Positions 8,986-62,725 of a stretch of DNA of 64,000 nt are shown piece after piece; the first letter of the stretch is position 1; each line of letters opens with the position of its first letter. Position numbers and translations under genes: made by a program. The DNA comes from Octopus sinensis. Taxonomy: Eukaryota. A model generated the notes under the pieces. It made no database searches. It saw nothing but the letters and a program-made list of their open reading frames with translations, and was not told the origin of the DNA. Location: NCBI RefSeq assembly GCF_006345805.1, contig NC_043001.1, forward strand, positions 43,524,001-43,588,000. The letters run 5' to 3'.

Positions 8986-9450
8986 CAAAAATAGGTAACA
9001 AAGGCAAGGTTGTGAGGAGTTTTTAGGACATTTATAAGGAAAGCGATATAGTCTTACAGTCTTACAGCTGTTTCTGGGATATTATGGATATCCCTTCATC
9101 AGGGATGATGTGAGACAAGTAAGTGGAAAAGGAGAAGATAGTGAAAACAGAGGGAAATAAGAGAATGAAAGTGGAAATAACATATAAAATATTGTAGTTG
9201 CAGTTCCATTATTCGAGTAAAGTGGTGTACAGAAGTGGTAAAAAAGTTTCCTGTACATGGTATGTAAGTTTCGATAGTAGTTCGTGTTTAGTCATTTCCA
9301 AGTATGAAACTGTGGATTCTGTGTTGCACATTCGAAGGGGTTTTGTGGTATGAATGATCCACAATCGAACCAAGAGTTTATCTATGGTCTGTCCTTAGCA
9401 CTTACTTAGCATTACCTGCCATTCTTTGGGTCTTCTAGATACCAATAACT
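8981..9450 (-). mobile_element. (TA)n-embedded Penelope-terminus-like element with hammerhead (9051-9117)
   Basis: Minus strand reads tcc-CTGATGA-agggatat(ccata)atatccca-GAAA-cagctg-TA-agac. Long TA arrays on both sides. Confidence 0.7.
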
Positions 9451-21127: not shown

Positions 21128-21540
21128 TACAAAATTAGAAAATGGAGAAACATACTTAATTCAATCAAACATCAACCATCAGATAATACCCAATCAATAC
21201 TATATTACACCATTACATAACAGCAAAGACATTATACAAAATATATTGTAAATATAATTAGACAAGGAAATAGAAATATAAAATACAATTAGTATTGATT
21301 GGCTATTATCTGATGGCTGATGTTTGATTGATTTAAGTATGTTTCTCCATTTTCTAATTTTGTATTATTAATTTACGGTAATATTTTTACCCTTGCCCAC
21401 ATAATACAGTAGATGAATTAATTGCATGGCAATTTTTAACATTTATGTATTAGTCTTGTTGGGTACTTCTCTAGCAGTATATTGGATATATGTTATCCCA
21501 TGGTGGGTTGAATTTTCAACCCCTATCTCATTTTATAACC
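21128..21540. mobile_element. (TA)n-embedded fold-back element related to 23212-23660
   Basis: ~75-bp inverted arms at 21128-21203 and 21290-21365. Its ends match both ends of the 23212-23660 element. Confidence 0.65.
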
Positions 21541-22595
21541 GATATATATATATATATATATATCAGAGGCGATGCCAGGTCATCAGTGTCACTCAGGCTT
21601 ATCACAGATTTTGTCACTTGGGTTCATCACAGATTTCACACATAAGACATATGCCTACTTGAAAATTTCACATTTTCCCACAATATTTCTGGCCCCAAAT
21701 GGCCTATTTTTCATATCAAGCACTACGTCTTTCTCCATTTCTAAGTTAAGAGTAAAAATAAAGCAAACCTGCAAAACACAACTGATCTTTATGCACAGAT
21801 GCACAAAATAACACCAATCAAATAACAACAGCAGAGTGCACAACAAACATCAGCGATCTGACTGTTATCTGTACTCTTGATAAGAGATGCCAGTTAGTCT
21901 TTTACAGCTACCAGGCTCATTCATATTAGCCTGAGTTCCTGGATAATTTTTCGTTCCTTAAGAATATTGTAGAATGGAATCTTTTTATCGATTGAAATTC
22001 AAATCCTAATCTCTATAGGAATTTATTGTTTCAAGAAAACATTGAATTTGAATTACTTTTAATTTTTATGATTATAGATAACAACTAACAACTTAGGCTG
22101 TGACTTCTGAGCCTGAGTCATGTATGTGTGAATGATGTTGAGAGAACGTTTGTTGTGAATAATATTTTTTGACACAGGGCACCTCTAAGACATTGAGCGA
22201 AAATAAATGAACTGCGACCAGGCTCAATAAAAGCAGCCCGAGTTATTGGCTGCAATTACATACTTGATATTAGTGTTGGCAGAAATTAAATCAGCTTGCA
22301 ATGACACATTCATTTTACTAAATTTATACTCAGACTAAGCCCAAACAGCCCGGGTACTGGAGTCACCACTGAGATGTGTGTGTGTGTGTGTGCGTTTATG
22401 TGTGCATGCATAAAATAGTTACTAATCCAGACAAATAGTTGTATAAAGGAAATAAAATAAGTTGAAAAAGCACAGAGAATGTTTAAGAAGATTTATTTAT
22501 ATTAATATTAATATGTTTAACTGGTTTCATATTTGTATGATTTTCAAATGAAAAAGATTTGAGAGACATGGAGCTGTGTCATTAAAAAGGTATCA

Positions 22596-23166: not shown

Positions 23167-23211
<45 letters not shown>

Positions 23212-23215
<4 letters not shown>

Positions 23216-23656
23216 AATTGAGATAGGGGTTGCAAATTCAACCCTCCATGTGATGGGTATGTACCCACACTTATATGAGTATATATGTAATTTGGTTTAT
23301 ACTTTAGAATCTCCGAAGAGGCCTTAAGATATCTTTGTGAATGTCTCAATTTTAACTTCATATTGGCATACTATACATGGCTAATATAGGTAAAATGAGG
23401 CATACTTATCTGCATGGCCGAAACAGCTGTAAGATATAGTGTATATTTATATTTATATCTATTTATATTTATTAATTTATACCCTCTTATAATGATTGTA
23501 CTTTTTGTATTGTATTACTCATTCATGTACGCTGTTTTGTTATATATTTTTATGTTTAACCCTAATGTTCTTATGTAGTGGTTTAATAAAGTATATGATT
23601 GGGTATTATCTGGTAGTTGATAAATGATTTAGTTGTATTTCTCCATTTTCTTATCT

Positions 23657-23660
<4 letters not shown>
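23212..23660 (+). mobile_element. (TA)n-embedded element with expanded hammerhead (23298-23443)
   Basis: atct-CCGAAGA-ggcc-[92 nt]-ggcc-GAAA-cagctg-TA-agat. TA arrays on both sides. Confidence 0.65.
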
Positions 23661-23694
<34 letters not shown>

Positions 23695-23723
23695 GCAGGT
23701 TGAAAAGGAACATATGAGTTGAT

Positions 23724-24120
23724 ATATATGGAAAAATCATCAAGAAAGAAAATGCTAAAATAATTTTATAAAAAACATTTCAGTACCGGTTTCAGTCATT
23801 GAGACTTTTTCAAATTTGAGTATGGAAAACAATTAAATTTTGGAAAAATTAAAAGAAAAGTATTTTTAAAAGAATATTTGCATAGGGTTCAAATACAAGT
23901 GGTATTTTCCTTGTTTCTGCCTGTCTCTGTCTCTCTTGTTTACTCTTGTATTTGAACACTATGCAAATATTCTTTTAAAAAAACTTTTCTTTTAATTTTT
24001 CCAAAATTTAATTGTTTTCCATACTTACAGTTGAAAAAGTCTCAATGACTCAAACCGGTACTGAAATGTTTTTTATAAAATTATTTTAGCATTTTCTATC
24101 TTGACTTTTTTTCCACATAT
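23724..24120. mobile_element. Long inverted repeat (~180-bp arms) carrying mirror-image hammerhead motifs
   Basis: Arms at 23724-23904 and 23941-24120. Each holds TTGAAAA-agtc(tcaat)gact-(G/C)AAA-ccgg-TA-ctg. Confidence 0.75.
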
Positions 24121-24123
24121 ATA

Positions 24124-24171
<48 letters not shown>

Positions 24172-24629: not shown

Positions 24630-27152
24630 AGAGGTTTGCAGGTGCCACTATGAAAGGTTGCTCAATAAAGAGGATGAATGGGAGAAAGAAAGTCTGCCGA
24701 ATGTCGATCCAACAAAGGGACCTGCTATCTGAGTTGACAGTACCTTGGTAGATAAAGCAATTAAGGATATGAAGACAGGGAAAGCCCTGGGCTCATCAGG
24801 AGTCACTGCAGAGATGCTCAAAATATCTGGCGGTGTTGGCTATAGCTTAGTCACTCGTATAGTTAACCAGGTGATACATGAAAGGAGTCATACCCAATGA
24901 CTGGTGTAGCAGCACCATAACCAACTGCTACAAAGGTAAAGGTGACACTTTAGATACAAATAATTACAGAGGTATCAAGTTATTGGATCAGGTAATGAAG
25001 GTCACGGAGAGGGTCATAGCCCAACTAATTAAGGAGAGAGTCAGTCTAGATGAGATGCTGTTTGGGTTTGCGCCAGGGAAAAGCACCACTGATGCTATAT
25101 TTCTGGTAAGACAGCTGCAAGAGAAATACCTAGCCAAAGATAAACCTCTGTACCTGGCTTTCGTTGACATGGAGAAAGCCTTTGAGAGGGTCCCCCAGTC
25201 TCTTATCTCGTGGTCAATGAGGAAACTAAGGTTAGATGAATGGTTAGTGAGAGCTGTGCAAGCCATGTATAGGGATGCTGTCAGTAAGGTGAGAGTTGGC
25301 AATGAGTACAGTGAAGAATTCTGAGTAGGGGTAGGGGTCCACCAAGGATCAGTCCTCAGGCCCCTCTTATTCATCATATTCCTCCAGGTAATAACAGGGG
25401 AATTCAAGACAGGATGCCCCTGGGAACTTCTCTATGCTGATAACCTTGCTCTAATTGCTGAGTCACTATCAGAATTAGAGGAAAATTTTCAGGTGTGGAA
25501 GCAAGGATTAGAATCAAAAGGCCTTAGAGTCAACCTAGCAAAAGCCAAAGTCCTAATTAGTTGGAAGGAAGACAAACTACAAATCCCTTCAGGTTGATGG
25601 CTCTGCTCGATATGTAGAAAAGGCATAGCTAGAAACTCAATAAGATGTACCCAGTGTAAGCTATGGACACATAAGAGGTGCAGCAATATCAAAGGGAGGC
25701 TAACTGGGAAGATAGTTTTTGTATGTGGCAAATGCTTAGGTGCTATAAACACAGAAAATGTGCAGAGAACAACTTCTTCCACATTCCGGGGAGAAAAACT
25801 AGAAGTAGTTGATAGCTTCCGTTACCTAGGTGACCAAGTCAGTAGCAGGGTGGATGCTCTGAAAGTGTAGCTGCTAGAATAAGAATAGTCTGGGCAAAGT
25901 TCAGAGAGCTCCTACCTCTGCTGGTGACAAAGGGCCTCTCGCTCAGAATAAAAGGTAGACTGTATGACGCATGTGTGCGAACAGCCATGCTACATGGCAA
26001 TGAAACATGAGCCATAACTACTGAGGATATGCGTAAGCTCACAAGGAATAAAGCCAGTATGCTCCGCTGGATATGTAATGTCAGTATGCATGCACGACAG
26101 AGTGTAAGCGCCCTGAGGGAAAAGTTGGATTTAAGAAGCATCAGATGTGGTGTGCAAGAGAGATGACTGTGCTGGTATGGTCATGTGTTGTGAATGAATG
26201 AGGGCAGCTGTGTGAAAAAGTGTCACAACCTAGCAGTTGAGGGAACCTATGGAAGAGGTAGACCCAGGAAAACCTGGGATGAAGTGGTGAAGCATGATCT
26301 TCAAACATTGGGCCTTACCATGGCAATGACTGGTAACTGGGACCTTTGGAGATATGCTGTGCTTGAGAAGACCTGACAAGCCAAGTTAGACCATAGCCCA
26401 TGGCCTATGCCAGTGGGTGTAACCAACCCATTTATGAATACCCCTCATTCATTAGACAATAAACCTTGCTTGTGAAGACCTATTGAGGCAAGTGAAATCA
26501 AAATCAAAATCAAAGTTGCTGATGTGGCCGATGACAGAACTACCTGATTGGCACTCGTGTCAGTGGAACGTTAAAAGCACATCCAAATGTGGTGGTGTAA
26601 CCGGCCCATTTATGAGTACCCCTCATTCATTGGGCAATGCACTTTGCTTACGAAGACCTATTGAGGCAAGTGTAAACAAATCAAAATTGCTGATGTGGCC
26701 GATGACAGTACCGCCTGATTGGTACTTGTGCCAGTGGAACATTAAAAGCACATCTGAGCATGATCGTTGCCAGCGCCATGGATTCGCTCCCATACCGGTG
26801 ACATGTGAAAAGCACCATTCAAGCCTGATCGTTGCTAGCATTGCCTTACTGGCACATGTGCCAGAGGCATGTGAAAAACAACATTTGAGTGTGGTTGTTG
26901 CCAGTGTTACTGGACTGGCTCCCATGCAGGTAGCATGTAAATACACCTTTTGAGTGTGGTCATTGCCAGAACCGCCTGACTGGCCCTCATGCTGGTGGCA
27001 CATAAAAAGCACCCACTACACTCTCAGAATTTGCATCCAGCTGTAGAATTTTTGCCAAGTCAGATTGAGCCTGATGCAGCCTGTGGCTCACCAGTTCTCA
27101 GTCAAACTGTCCAACCCATACCAGCATGGAAAGCGGATGTTAAACGATGATG
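24630..27152 (+). mobile_element. RTE-clade LINE, 5'-truncated and degenerate, with repetitive 3' UTR and (GAT)n end
   Basis: NYRGIKLL, FGFAPGKSTTDAIF, AFVDMEKAF, GVHQGSVL, LLYADN, FRYLG, WYGHV and RGRPRKTW motifs. Stops include apparent CGA>TGA changes. The 3' end matches dispersed tail copies. Confidence 0.92.
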
Positions 27153-30596: not shown

Positions 30597-30821
30597 TATC
30601 CCTTCTGGTCATTTCAATATGCGACCGTGTGTGTATCGTTGGTGATTTTCTTACTCTGTCTTCCCTTCCTTGGACCTTTCCTTTTTCCATGTTTCTGACG
30701 AAGAGCTCCGCTCGAAACGTTAAATCCTCCTTCTTTCTTTCCTTCCCTGAGCGTCCAGTAACACAATACTTGTTCCACGTCTTCACATAGTTGTGTCTTC
30801 TCTCTTTGTTCATGTTTGGAT

Positions 30822-35039: not shown

Positions 35040-35240
35040 AAGTGAAATTGTAGTTGTACTGGTGACATGTAAAAGACACCCACTACACTCGGAGTGGTTG
35101 GTGTTATGAAAGGCATCCAGTTGTAGAAACCAAGCCAAAATCAGATTGGAACCTGGTACAGCTCCTGGCTTACCAGTTCCAGTCAAGCCGTCTAACCCAT
35201 GCCTGCATGGAAAGCAGATGTTAAATGGTGATGATGATGA
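35040..35240 (+). mobile_element. RTE LINE 3' tail fragment
   Basis: cacccactacactc..ggcatccag.tgtagaaac..aacccatgcc.gcatggaaagc..gttaaa..gatgatg matches 27010-27152. Other copies at 34380-34515(+), 57860-58005(-) and 59728-60195(-). Confidence 0.8.
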
Positions 35241-56465: not shown

Positions 56466-58005
56466 ATATATATATTCTTTTATTCTTTTACTTATTTCAC
56501 TCATTTCACTGCAGCCATGCTGGGACACCAACTTTAGTCGAGCAAATCAACCTCAGGACTATTCTTTGTAAGCCTAGTACTTATTTTATTGGTCTCTTTT
56601 GCCAAACTGCTAAGTTACGGGGGACATAAACATGCAAACATTGGTTGTCAAATGATGTTGGGGGGACAAACACAGACTCACAAACACCAACATAGAAGAT
56701 GGACATTAACTGATGATGCTATATTATACATAGGCATGGCTGTGTGGTAAGAAGTTGGCTTCCCATTCACGTAGTTCAGGTTCAATCTCACTACATGGTA
56801 CCTTGGTTAACTGTCATCAGCCTTGGGCTGATTTGGTTGATGGAAATTGAAACAAGCCTGTCATGTGTGTGTACAAGGGGAATATATACTAAGAACACTA
56901 ATGGGGAAAAAACAGAATTAAAATCTCTCCAAGCATAGTTTGGTAAGCTAGTCAAGCAATGCTGATTCCATTCTACAGGCAATGAAAGTTACAGTATGTT
57001 CCTGTATACAGGAGTAGAGTATGAAATTTAAATTTGAAATTGGAAGTTAAAAAAAAAATCAACCAATCAAGAGACAGCTTATTAAATGTCTTAGACACAT
57101 CTATGCTTCCCCACCCTATCTGTCAAAGGAGGCACAAGCACTTTCACACACACACACACATATATACATCCTCCTTTTTATCCTTTTCCTTTTACTAGTT
57201 TCAGTCATTTGACTGTGGTCATGCTGGAGCAGTATATACATTTGACAGAACTACCTACAAATTCATTCACAAGGCCCATATATTAGCTTTAAATGATGTC
57301 AAGAGGAACGTTGAGATAAAGGCCAAGATGAAAGAAAGATGGCAACAGTAATTCTGTAGAAAAGATCAAGATGTGTTATCAATACATCCTTCATCTGAGG
57401 CTCTTATGGCCAACTGTATACGTAAGATTCCATTAACAAGAGTAGAATGAATAAAAAATTATATTATAAAAGTAGCTTAATCTCCTGCTACACAATTTGA
57501 AAAGTGGGTTGTTTAGTGCTATTAGACAAGTGAAGTGGTTTCTAGTATCAACTTTCAGCTGTCTTATGATGTACCCGTGAACATTTCTCTGAGTACAATT
57601 GCTTGTACTACAGAGTTACCAATAATGTTGACAGTAAGGAAATAGAACATAAGAGATGCTGTTGAGGTGATGGAGAACAACTGGAAAAGACAAGAGGTGA
57701 TTAGATATCTGATCAGATTTAACAAGGGCAGGTGAGAGATGACCACCTGATCAAAGAGGAAAAGCAAGCAACAAAAGTAGTGTGGGTAGGAAACCACCCT
57801 TGTCAGCATCTTCTCAAATACAAACATAAACATAGACACACACATATACACATGTATATATCATCGTTTAGCGTCCGCTTTCCATGCTAGCATGGGTTGG
57901 ACGGTTCAACTGGGGTCTGGGAAGCCAGAAGGCTGCACCAGGCCCAGTCTGATCTGGCAATGTTTCTATGGCTGGATGCCCTTCCTAACACCAACCACTC
58001 CATGA

Positions 58006-58050
<45 letters not shown>

Positions 58051-58288: not shown

Positions 58289-60292
58289 CACACACACACA
58301 CAGACACATGAACCATGACCCTACATGTTGTAAGAGATGCCTAAAAGGGCTGATTCTTTTTCTGTTTGATCTGGTTGTTCTTTGTGGTCAAGATATCTCA
58401 TCTGACCTTGTTATTCTGATTAGATATCTATCACCTCCATTATTTTCTTATTTTCATATAACTCCAGTACTTTTTTTATGCCTGATACTTGATCTATTAG
58501 TCTCTTATTGCAGAACCATTAAGTTAAAGGGATGTCGAGCATTGAAAGATACATACATGTACATATGCGCATGCACACACACACACACACACACATCCAT
58601 CTGCACATGCGAACACACATGCACACACTCATGCACATACACACACACATACATACACACCCATCGACACATGCACACACATGTCCACTGACACATACAT
58701 GCACACACTCACACACACACACAGTTTCTCTCTATCAGATTCACTCATAAAGCATAAATTAGCCCAAGATTATGGCAGAAGCTCAAGATGCTAAACAATG
58801 AGACTGAATCCCAAACTATGTATTTGGAAAGCAAACTTCTTCACTGTATGACTATGTTTGTGCCTATTTATGTTAACTGAACAGAATGTAAACAGTTGAT
58901 ATATGCTGGGTTAAATAAGCACTTAATGAACTGATGGTGAGTGAGTAAGTGTGATCATGGTGGAGGCGAATCAAAATATACCCACAAGGGAGTGTTAGTG
59001 TTAGATTAAGAACGTAGGCTTGAAGATTGAGATTAAGGGAGATATTCTATATCTATAACATTTTATAGACACTTATTCAACATTATGCCAGCATGGCAAA
59101 AATTTTAAAAATTGGTATCAAAATAATAATGGTTAAATAGAATAATGGTGATGATGATGATGACGACGGGTGACAATGATGATGATGATGATAATTATAA
59201 TGATGATGATGAAGACAGCTACAACATTGACAGTGATGGTGCTGCTGCTGCTGTTGTTGTTGCTGTTAAGCAACAAGATGGGTAAGGGTGATTAGGTGAT
59301 GGTCTAGGGCTTAGGAGCAGGAGACCCCAGACCGTGGAAAAAAAAAAAAACTTTGGTCATCTTGTTGTAGTCGAGGGCTCTTCATTGACGGCTGACACCA
59401 CTGGGAGGTGGCCCTCGAAGTCGCTGGAAATGGAGATCTCCAGGTCCAAATTCTTGAACGGCTGCTGCTGCTGCTGATGATGATGATGACTACAACAATG
59501 ATAGTGATCATGATGACTTTGGTCTGCAGCATTTTTCTTTCAAGCAATGAATACAGTTTTGAAGCATTTCATTTCACTGTATATCAAGGCATCCTTTGCA
59601 AAATAAAGAATTTTTTAATGTAAAGTACAGAGGTAGAAGAAATCTTCAACAAACTGCTACAGACAAGTTCTTTTTTTTTTTCACATTGAAAAAATTGTCA
59701 GCTGATAATGATTACTGAGGTCTTGATCATCATCATCATCATCATCATTATTTAACGTCTGCTTTCCATGCTAGCATGGGTTGGACAATTTGACTGAGGA
59801 CTGGTGAACCAGATGGCTGCACCAGGCTCCAATCTTGATCTGGCAGAGTTTCTACAGCTGGATGACCTTCCTAATTCCAACCACTCCAAGAGTGTAGTGG
59901 GTGCTTTTACGTGCCACTGGCATGAAGGCCAATCAGGTGGTACTGGCAACAGCCATGCCCAAATGGTGTTTTTTTTTTACATGCCACCTGCACACTGGCA
60001 CAAGTGCCAGTAAGGTGATGCTGGTAACGATCACGCTTGAATGGTGCTTTTTATGTGCCACCCGCACGGACGCCAGTTAGCTGCTCTGGCAACGATCACA
60101 CTCGAATGGTGCCCTTAGTGCTCCACTAGCATGGATGCAAGTCATTTAATTTGATTTCAATTTCACTTGCCTCAACAGGTCTTCGCAAGCAGAAACACTG
60201 TAATACTCTGGGTTTTCAAGAAGATATATATTCCAGTTGAAACTGTAGTTATTTAAACCTTTAGCATTCAGATTACTCTGTCAAATGTAAAA

Positions 60293-62506: not shown

Positions 62507-62725
62507 AGTTAAAGTTAATCCAAACAAGAAAACACAGAAAAAAACACAACAACGCGAGGACGTGGAACAATTAAAGAATTATTTGACGCTCAGGAAAGAA
62601 GGGAAGGAGGGTTTAACGTTTCGAGCGGAGCTCTTCGTCGGAAACAAAGGAGAAGGAAAGATCCCGAGAAGGGAAGACAGAGGAAAAAAATTTTTTTGCT
62701 GGTGGTGCTCAAGAGATCACATGTT
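62507..62725 (-). mobile_element. Second copy of the 30597-30826 hammerhead element (motif 62611-62645)
   Basis: Minus strand gttt-CCGACGA-agagc(tcc)gctc-GAAA-cg-TT-aaac; TA-flanked. Confidence 0.72.

Follow-up and report, generated by a model that had tools for sequence, protein, structure and literature searches.

Penelope-like elements (PLEs) of the Hydra clade use (TA)n as target and are recognised by diagnostic protein motifs (Craig et al. 2021, PMC8557442); a layout with an inverted truncated copy and a one-sided tail has already been described for PLEs in the same paper. Two elements from its File S2, Hydra-1_Obim and Penelope-1_NV, carry a sense-strand type I hammerhead motif near the 3' end, with a near-palindromic stem III, as does the locus presented below, and the 25 Hydra families of that file measure ca. 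12-26 nt from core to core and all have U at core position 4 (U4). The minimal PLE hammerheads with a palindromic helix III described by Cervera and De la Pena (2014, PMC4209133) have a short stem I, an enlarged helix II and low expected activity, the palindrome implying dimers; hammerheads of this kind cleave slowly, presumably as dimers (PMC4209133, PMC6765202). One PLE hammerhead has been found to cleave only with its protein; insertion in vitro proceeds without it, and natural ends do not appear at its cut site (PMC11167929). The change of U4 to C (U4C) considerably lowers in vitro activity yet permits viroid infectivity (Perreault et al. 2011, PMC3088659).

The window, i.e., the whole 64-kb stretch of octopus DNA that was analysed, contains a motif of this known kind in an element of a known kind; what sets it apart is the length of its stem II arm and the inherited U4C change. 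The 'large' helix II in the available text of PMC4209133 has 6-8 bp, with no U4C found there, and the 'long helix II' of PMC13725137, as far as its available text goes, has 6 bp. In our literature search, no PLE hammerhead with an arm of 85-100 nt came up; cases of a long stem II or of U4C may nevertheless figure in the work of Lunse et al. on PLE hammerhead dimers and in the supplements of PMC4209133.

The motif in the window

The two core halves, CCGAAGA-GGCC (23313-23323) and GGCC-GAAA-CAGCTG-TA (23416-23431), are separated by a spacer of exactly 92 nt, as the first-pass annotation of the window had it, and stem I pairs in the way described there, through ATCT/AGAT (23309-12 / 23432-35) and TATACT/AGTGTA (23298-303 / 23438-43). 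Compared with the consensus CUGANGA ... GAAA ... UH, all core positions match but U4, which is C here, and, unlike in the PMC4209133 hammerheads, there is no extra nucleotide between A9 and G10.1. Three helices close the core, stem I being open-ended: stem II is 89-98% paired, stem I has 2-4 bp (83%), of which just the first two pairs beside the core are kept across subfamilies, and stem III is palindromic. Stem II comprises a GGCC/GGCC base, a 5-bp helix (23327-31 / 23407-11), an internal loop and a long irregular hairpin (23341-67 / 23380-403). Cleavage is predicted after A23431 (A17), in a GUA triplet behind the palindrome. The features of the locus are collected in Table 1.

Table 1. Coordinates of the hammerhead motif, its host element and a comparison site in the window
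Feature	Position	Strand	Details	Basis
(TA)n target, left side	23168..23213	.		Tandem Repeats Finder
41-bp fragment of the distal 3' tail, in inverted orientation	23214..23254	-		opposite-orientation match to other copies' tail end
5'-truncated 3' end (pLTR) of a Hydra-clade PLE	23253..23658	+		relatedness to other copies
Stem I, 5' strand	23298..23312	+	distal TATACT 23298-303, proximal ATCT 23309-12	sequence
5' core half, U4C variant	23313..23319	+	C3-C4-G5-A6-A7-G8-A9	
Stem II and arm	23320..23419	+	100 nt core to core	fold energy, covariation
3' core half and stem III	23420..23431	+	GAAA, palindromic CAGCTG, U16.1, A17	
Stem I, 3' strand	23432..23443	+	AGAT, then AGTGTA	sequence
(TA)n target, right side	23659..23691	.		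Tandem Repeats Finder
Minimal hammerhead of another family (comparison site)	62611..62645	-	12 nt core to core, CG palindrome, U4C	

A type I descriptor allowing loops of up to 300 nt gave a single match in the window, whereas 60 block-wise dinucleotide shuffles averaged 0-0.017 matches. Since an Rfam scan of the window gave zero hammerhead matches at E<=1, standard searches do miss the motif, as had been anticipated.

The host element

A 446-base query run against the window's own genome (2.7 Gb) gave 2,440 candidates, and all 40 of those scored are other copies of most of 23253-23658 at 90-99% identity. The copies either share a common 3' end followed by (TA)n or run ca. 175 nt further to a second end, their 5' ends being scattered, and some extend upstream into a 3' UTR and an ORF. 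Walking upstream leads to diverged subfamilies with reverse transcriptase (RT)/GIY-YIG frames, which are intact and 960 codons long in loci L141 and L142, with YRDD at codon 388 and YIG at 855. In L141 a 3' UTR of ca. 2.2 kb comes after the frame, then the ribozyme of this family, with U4 and 85 nt from core to core, and then the tail known from the other copies; a second pLTR lies directly upstream of the frame. The frame contains DKT, YRDD, CxCx5C (CxCx5Cx5C) and YIG, and CCHH is absent; RWK is found in L051 and L148, and RWR in L141. Homologues of the frame number 79 at E<=1e-20, the best named one coming from Argonauta (P0013). The RT/GIY-YIG assignment rests on motifs because a Pfam search found nothing significant for the PLE ORF or its fragments.

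The motif is thus identified, by the diagnostic motifs of the clade, as the pLTR ribozyme of a Hydra-clade PLE and not a stand-alone oddity. A single ORF encodes, as judged by motifs, an RT followed by a C-terminal GIY-YIG domain; RWK, DKT in place of DKG, the CxCx5C linker and the lack of CCHH agree with the clade as described in PMC8557442, and so do insertion into (TA)n, partial tandem pLTRs, the inverted truncated copy and the one-sided tail. What departs from the clade is the hammerhead, which is canonically short (10-26 nt core to core) there and measures 85-103 nt here, with U4 or C4. In comparison with the Hydra families in the available text of that paper, the frame, the 3' UTR and the tail (ca. 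175 nt vs 30-40 nt) are also longer. The resemblance to PAc (Poseidon) of Anolis (PMC11167929) is in the placement of the motif upstream of two RT start sites giving two 3' termini and in the lack of natural ends at the cut site; unlike PAc, whose motif overlaps the start codon and has been shown to be protein-assisted, the octopus motif of tandem copies precedes the start codon by ca. 530 nt, and its cleavage is predicted. A non-LTR retrozyme, defined by short tandem repeats with no ORF and one hammerhead per unit (definitions as in the available texts of 10.64898/2026.07.22.740005 and PMC7229834), was considered and rejected, there being a single motif in the window and the family continuing into an RT frame.

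In the window copy the inverted tail piece joins the forward piece via a 2-bp overlap (23253-23254), and the element ends at the family's main 3' terminus, ca. 227 nt past the predicted cut. The 64-kb window holds no piece of the PLE frame and no second motif of this family. The copy is an ordinary truncated, promoter-less stub, with neither partner motif nor ORF in the window, and is probably inert.

Several observations concern the element and its surroundings. The two fixed 3' termini are ca. 175-180 nt apart (L141:5628-8300; L003:1909-2085), the PLE tail being described as 30-40 nt long, and the end of the distal tail contains a short hairpin-like stretch common to subfamilies, a candidate RT start site. 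Related copies are present in contigs of four runs, with three other organism labels among them, contigs being a type of data that cannot show RNA ends, and one Hydra-type PLE protein (P0053) is labelled as coming from a Gammaproteobacteria MAG, probably through host contamination. A second fold-back stub, of a related subfamily, is situated in (TA)n 1.7 kb from the motif (21128-21563); it consists of an inverted part (21128-21242) and a forward part with the full tail (21291-21563), truncated downstream of the ribozyme. The right side of the element adjoins a ca. 500-bp inverted repeat between TA repeats (23657-24163; 79% arm identity), MITE-like or fold-back in type. Four stretches (27033-27148, 35098-35225, 57863-58034, and 59751-59880) match the last 116-172 bases of the L141 query stretch at 78-85%; these bases lie just beyond the element's tail, so the matches are probably to a different common repeat. 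A degenerate (AACCCT)n telomere-like array is found at 1251-1345.

Inheritance and pairing of the stem II arm

The pattern core-N70-100-CGAAACAGCTGTH, for which the CAGCTG palindrome only was searched, has 1,541 matches in the genome against two for the reversed control, and 98 of the 100 listed matches belong to the window motif's family. What had been noted as a 92-nt insert is, on this count, an inherited hairpin arm, and the idea of a private insert falls away. The motif is, as the first-pass annotation had it, of the type I hammerhead kind, its stem II being enlarged, and self-cutting is predicted for it. Both core halves are conserved in paralogues: of 30 copies retrieved through plain similarity at the DNA level, 26 have the two intact. 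Core-to-core length clusters by subfamily at 85-88 or 99-100 nt, with a few deleted copies and with 97-103 nt in two distant ones.

The suggestion that the insert is structural is borne out by covariation, with compensatory changes in the arm. In 27 copies spanning subfamilies, a 30-pair structure has 92.6% of its cells paired and 25 double-change cells, a result as high in 0 of 500 shuffles, the paired share of slid controls being 27-50%, though the test is partly circular, the structure having been derived from the same sequences, and related copies are not independent of one another. The double changes are confined to five of the 30 pairs, and 53 of 500 shuffles reach that number of pairs, which taken by itself does not go beyond shuffles. 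The arm of the window copy folds at -27.9 kcal/mol (z -3.3), with z from -1.7 to -7.5 in 14 representatives.

In ten copies identified independently of the motif, invariant positions make up 11/12 of the 3' core with stem III, 4/7 of the 5' core (C3, G5, A6, and G8), 23/58 of the paired arm, 6/34 of the unpaired arm, and 10/76 and 16/196 of the flanks, which are gappy; GAAA is fixed across copies along with C3, G5, A6, and G8. The gradient from the core through the paired arm to the unpaired arm and flanks therefore indicates, at the level of aligned copies, selection on the core first and on arm pairing next. That two short motifs merely came to lie together by chance in AT-rich repeat DNA is extremely improbable. 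The 146-nt stretch as a whole folds only modestly (z -1.54) and goes unrecognised by Rfam, as such a reading would have it, but the reading is refuted by the genomic count against its control, the pLTR position of the motif in full elements and the selective invariance of the core. Editing of the arm from A to I before copying was rejected as a source of variation, singleton A>G (12) and T>C (14) changes showing no asymmetry in 76 copies.

Long arms are not a peculiarity of this family. With a 3' half containing any hexamer palindrome, spacers of 40-69 nt gave 4,149 genomic matches against 20 in the control, 81 of the 100 listed rows being of one family, and spacers of 9-39 nt gave 170 against 14; long arms thus predominate among hammerheads with a hexamer palindrome in this genome, 5,690 of the 5,860 matches exceeding 40 nt. 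Overall, short motifs are nonetheless common, the 62611 family by itself contributing 9,185 copies of 12 nt. Other full Hydra-type elements have 50-59-nt arms (L145:7294, L148:6912, L149:6315, L158:5922, and L160 (-) 5794), with CGATCG, CAATTG, CACGTG, CATATG, and TGGCCA as their stem III palindromes, and arms of 50-100 nt, different in sequence, occur in other PLE families of the genome. Elsewhere, a sense-strand hammerhead is detectable in 31 of 78 metagenome loci encoding related RTs, several of these loci being of the same family; all have 10-25 nt and U4, so that the window motif's arm exceeds that of its relatives elsewhere ca. 4-10-fold in length. When a covariance model of the family was run on 76 of the 78 metagenome loci, the arm turned up in none, and only short-motif cores matched, weakly. 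The nearest parallels in File S2 of PMC8557442 are PLE-X1_sMoe and PLE-X1_sTam of spike mosses, which have a long loop II (ca. 54 nt in sMoe) flagged as non-canonical; unlike the octopus elements, they belong to another clade, have arms of about half the length and carry U4. Neither Rfam nor published descriptors pick up these long-armed motifs, of which a single genome has more than 5,600; ribozyme numbers may accordingly be underestimated, and with them the PLE families called 'no hammerhead'.

The prevalence of such arms could be taken to mean that the arm is a functional domain, either a platform to which the RT/endonuclease or some host factor binds or a substitute for the tertiary contact, so that cleavage would be licensed only in a ribonucleoprotein; the protein-binding domain suggested in the first-pass annotation has no backing except analogy. 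The need of a PLE hammerhead for its own protein (PMC11167929) is in line with this reading, as is an unpaired UUGU(U/A)AA stretch kept across subfamilies A-G; the same stretch, however, is not conserved in the two most distant copies, the unpaired arm is poorly conserved as a whole (6/34, above), and the arm tip differs by 12-14 nt between subfamilies. Moreover, the arms of other families are without evident common sequence, as judged by eye, and 10-26 nt are enough for most Hydra PLEs, which leaves a functional domain unlikely in our view. Since the arms differ in sequence across families, shape rather than sequence is favoured. A short loop II is absent, and alignment A1, inspected by eye for canonical contacts, shows no conserved pairing between the loops of the arm and the flanks of stem I. 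We see in the arm a tolerated, pairing-constrained extension, which probably removes the fast tertiary contact.

The U4C change and predicted cleavage

The first-pass annotation took C4 for a possibly tolerated variant of the family. It is tolerated and inherited, though the consensus in some subfamilies only: C4 is found in 570 of the 1,541 family matches and U4 in 971, while in the window's subfamily 28 of 30 copies have C4. A tree of 80 copies (46 with C4), for which the 3' flank was the only input, shows C4 across several subfamilies in succession and requires four state changes; the root is unsure, and the order of gain and loss cannot be fixed from it. CpG decay was rejected as the origin of the C4 lineages, since the only change it can make is from C4 to U4; it may account for two of the 30 copies of the window's subfamily. 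The same annotation also pointed to U4C in the minus-strand motif at 62611-62645. The CCGACGA core is indeed present there, but the motif is short-armed and of a different family, and the change is therefore independent and not a variant of the same family. That family has 9,185 genomic matches against none in the control, with C4 in 68 of the first 100 listed copies by hand count, and U4C occurs in smaller families as well. The core change is the one in a natural viroid hammerhead cited in PMC3088659; unlike that single variant, here it is carried by at least 570 copies and by the majority of listed copies of the 9,185-copy family.

No footprint of cutting is visible in the genome. Among the listed 5' ends of ca. 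85 family pieces at inspected loci, a sample biased to intact motifs, positions are scattered and none is at +1 of the cut, and genome-wide break patterns give no 5'-end enrichment there: in the U4 subfamily one match, a 1-nt insertion, stands against four matches at three loci for the control position, and in the C4 subfamilies four matches, at one fold-back locus, against five control matches, mostly substitutions. It is worth mentioning that in L247:1420-1540 (G000:C2:109.79 Mb) the centre of a fold-back junction, a single event, coincides with the predicted cut, and the inverted side carries three repeats of the 29 nt that come first after the cut. It was not accepted as a footprint, because self-complementary ends in these 29 nt explain it equally well.

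The missing footprint and the reduced activity of U4C in vitro (PMC3088659) raise the question of whether the C4 subfamilies still cleave at all, or keep the motif just for its fold or because their cleaving ancestors are recent. Insertion of another PLE needs no cleavage (PMC11167929), and intact 960-codon frames were encountered in a U4 subfamily only, the C4 elements (L153, L051, and L044) having frames of their own, now broken by stops or shifts. Against such a loss, C4 extends over several successive subfamilies while the other catalytic positions stayed fixed, and the copies with C4 are similar in age to those with U4 (mean pairwise difference 2.2-4.6% vs 2.7-3.3%); we consider a loss of cleavage rather improbable.

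The predicted cleavage also has the energetics of the monomer against it: stem I is weak, and the active monomer fold lies 0.8-10 kcal/mol above the minimum-energy fold (3.9 for the window copy). The self-duplex of stem III, ACAGCUGU, is worth -11.1 kcal/mol. The unfavourable monomer fold, the palindrome duplex and the lack of 5'-end enrichment at the cut fit, as we infer, the picture of a protein- or dimer-dependent PLE hammerhead. The host element has been observed, with its layout and its number of copies, and so have the palindrome of stem III and the inheritance of both C4 and the paired arm; to account for them, we favour with moderate confidence a slow type I hammerhead of a PLE, dependent on a dimer or a protein, in which the 100-nt stem II is a paired rod holding the core halves. 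In a tandem pLTR-ORF-pLTR transcript, two motifs would pair via CAGCUG, or the element's own protein would fold them, and once so paired or folded they would be cut after A17. The arm would remove the usual contact of loop I with loop II and C4 would slow the core further, so that most of the RNA would be left uncut and could be copied from start sites ca. 230 and 400 nt downstream.

A further-reaching and doubtful proposal is that the PLEs of this genome have repeatedly detuned their hammerhead, by 50-100-nt arms of differing sequence in several Hydra families and by U4C, fixed independently in at least two heavily amplified families, the arm acting as a protein-gated switch by which the RNA stays uncut until the element's own enzyme binds. 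If so, the matched natural subfamilies with U4 or C4 and with 85 or 100 nt would make the purpose of PLE hammerheads directly testable. More generally, the family has natural variants of recent amplification in which arm length and a single core letter vary and the other catalytic positions are fixed, a panel suited to asking how much cleavage a PLE needs.

Two more hammerheads are present in the window. The one at 30695 (+) is a second copy of the 9,185-copy minimal-hammerhead family, and one of the pair 30695 and 62641 (-) has U4 and the other C4. The second, at 9045-9124 (-), is short-armed (ca. 21 nt core to core), with a CAGCTG palindrome and a CUGAUGA core, and belongs to a small family with C4 members.
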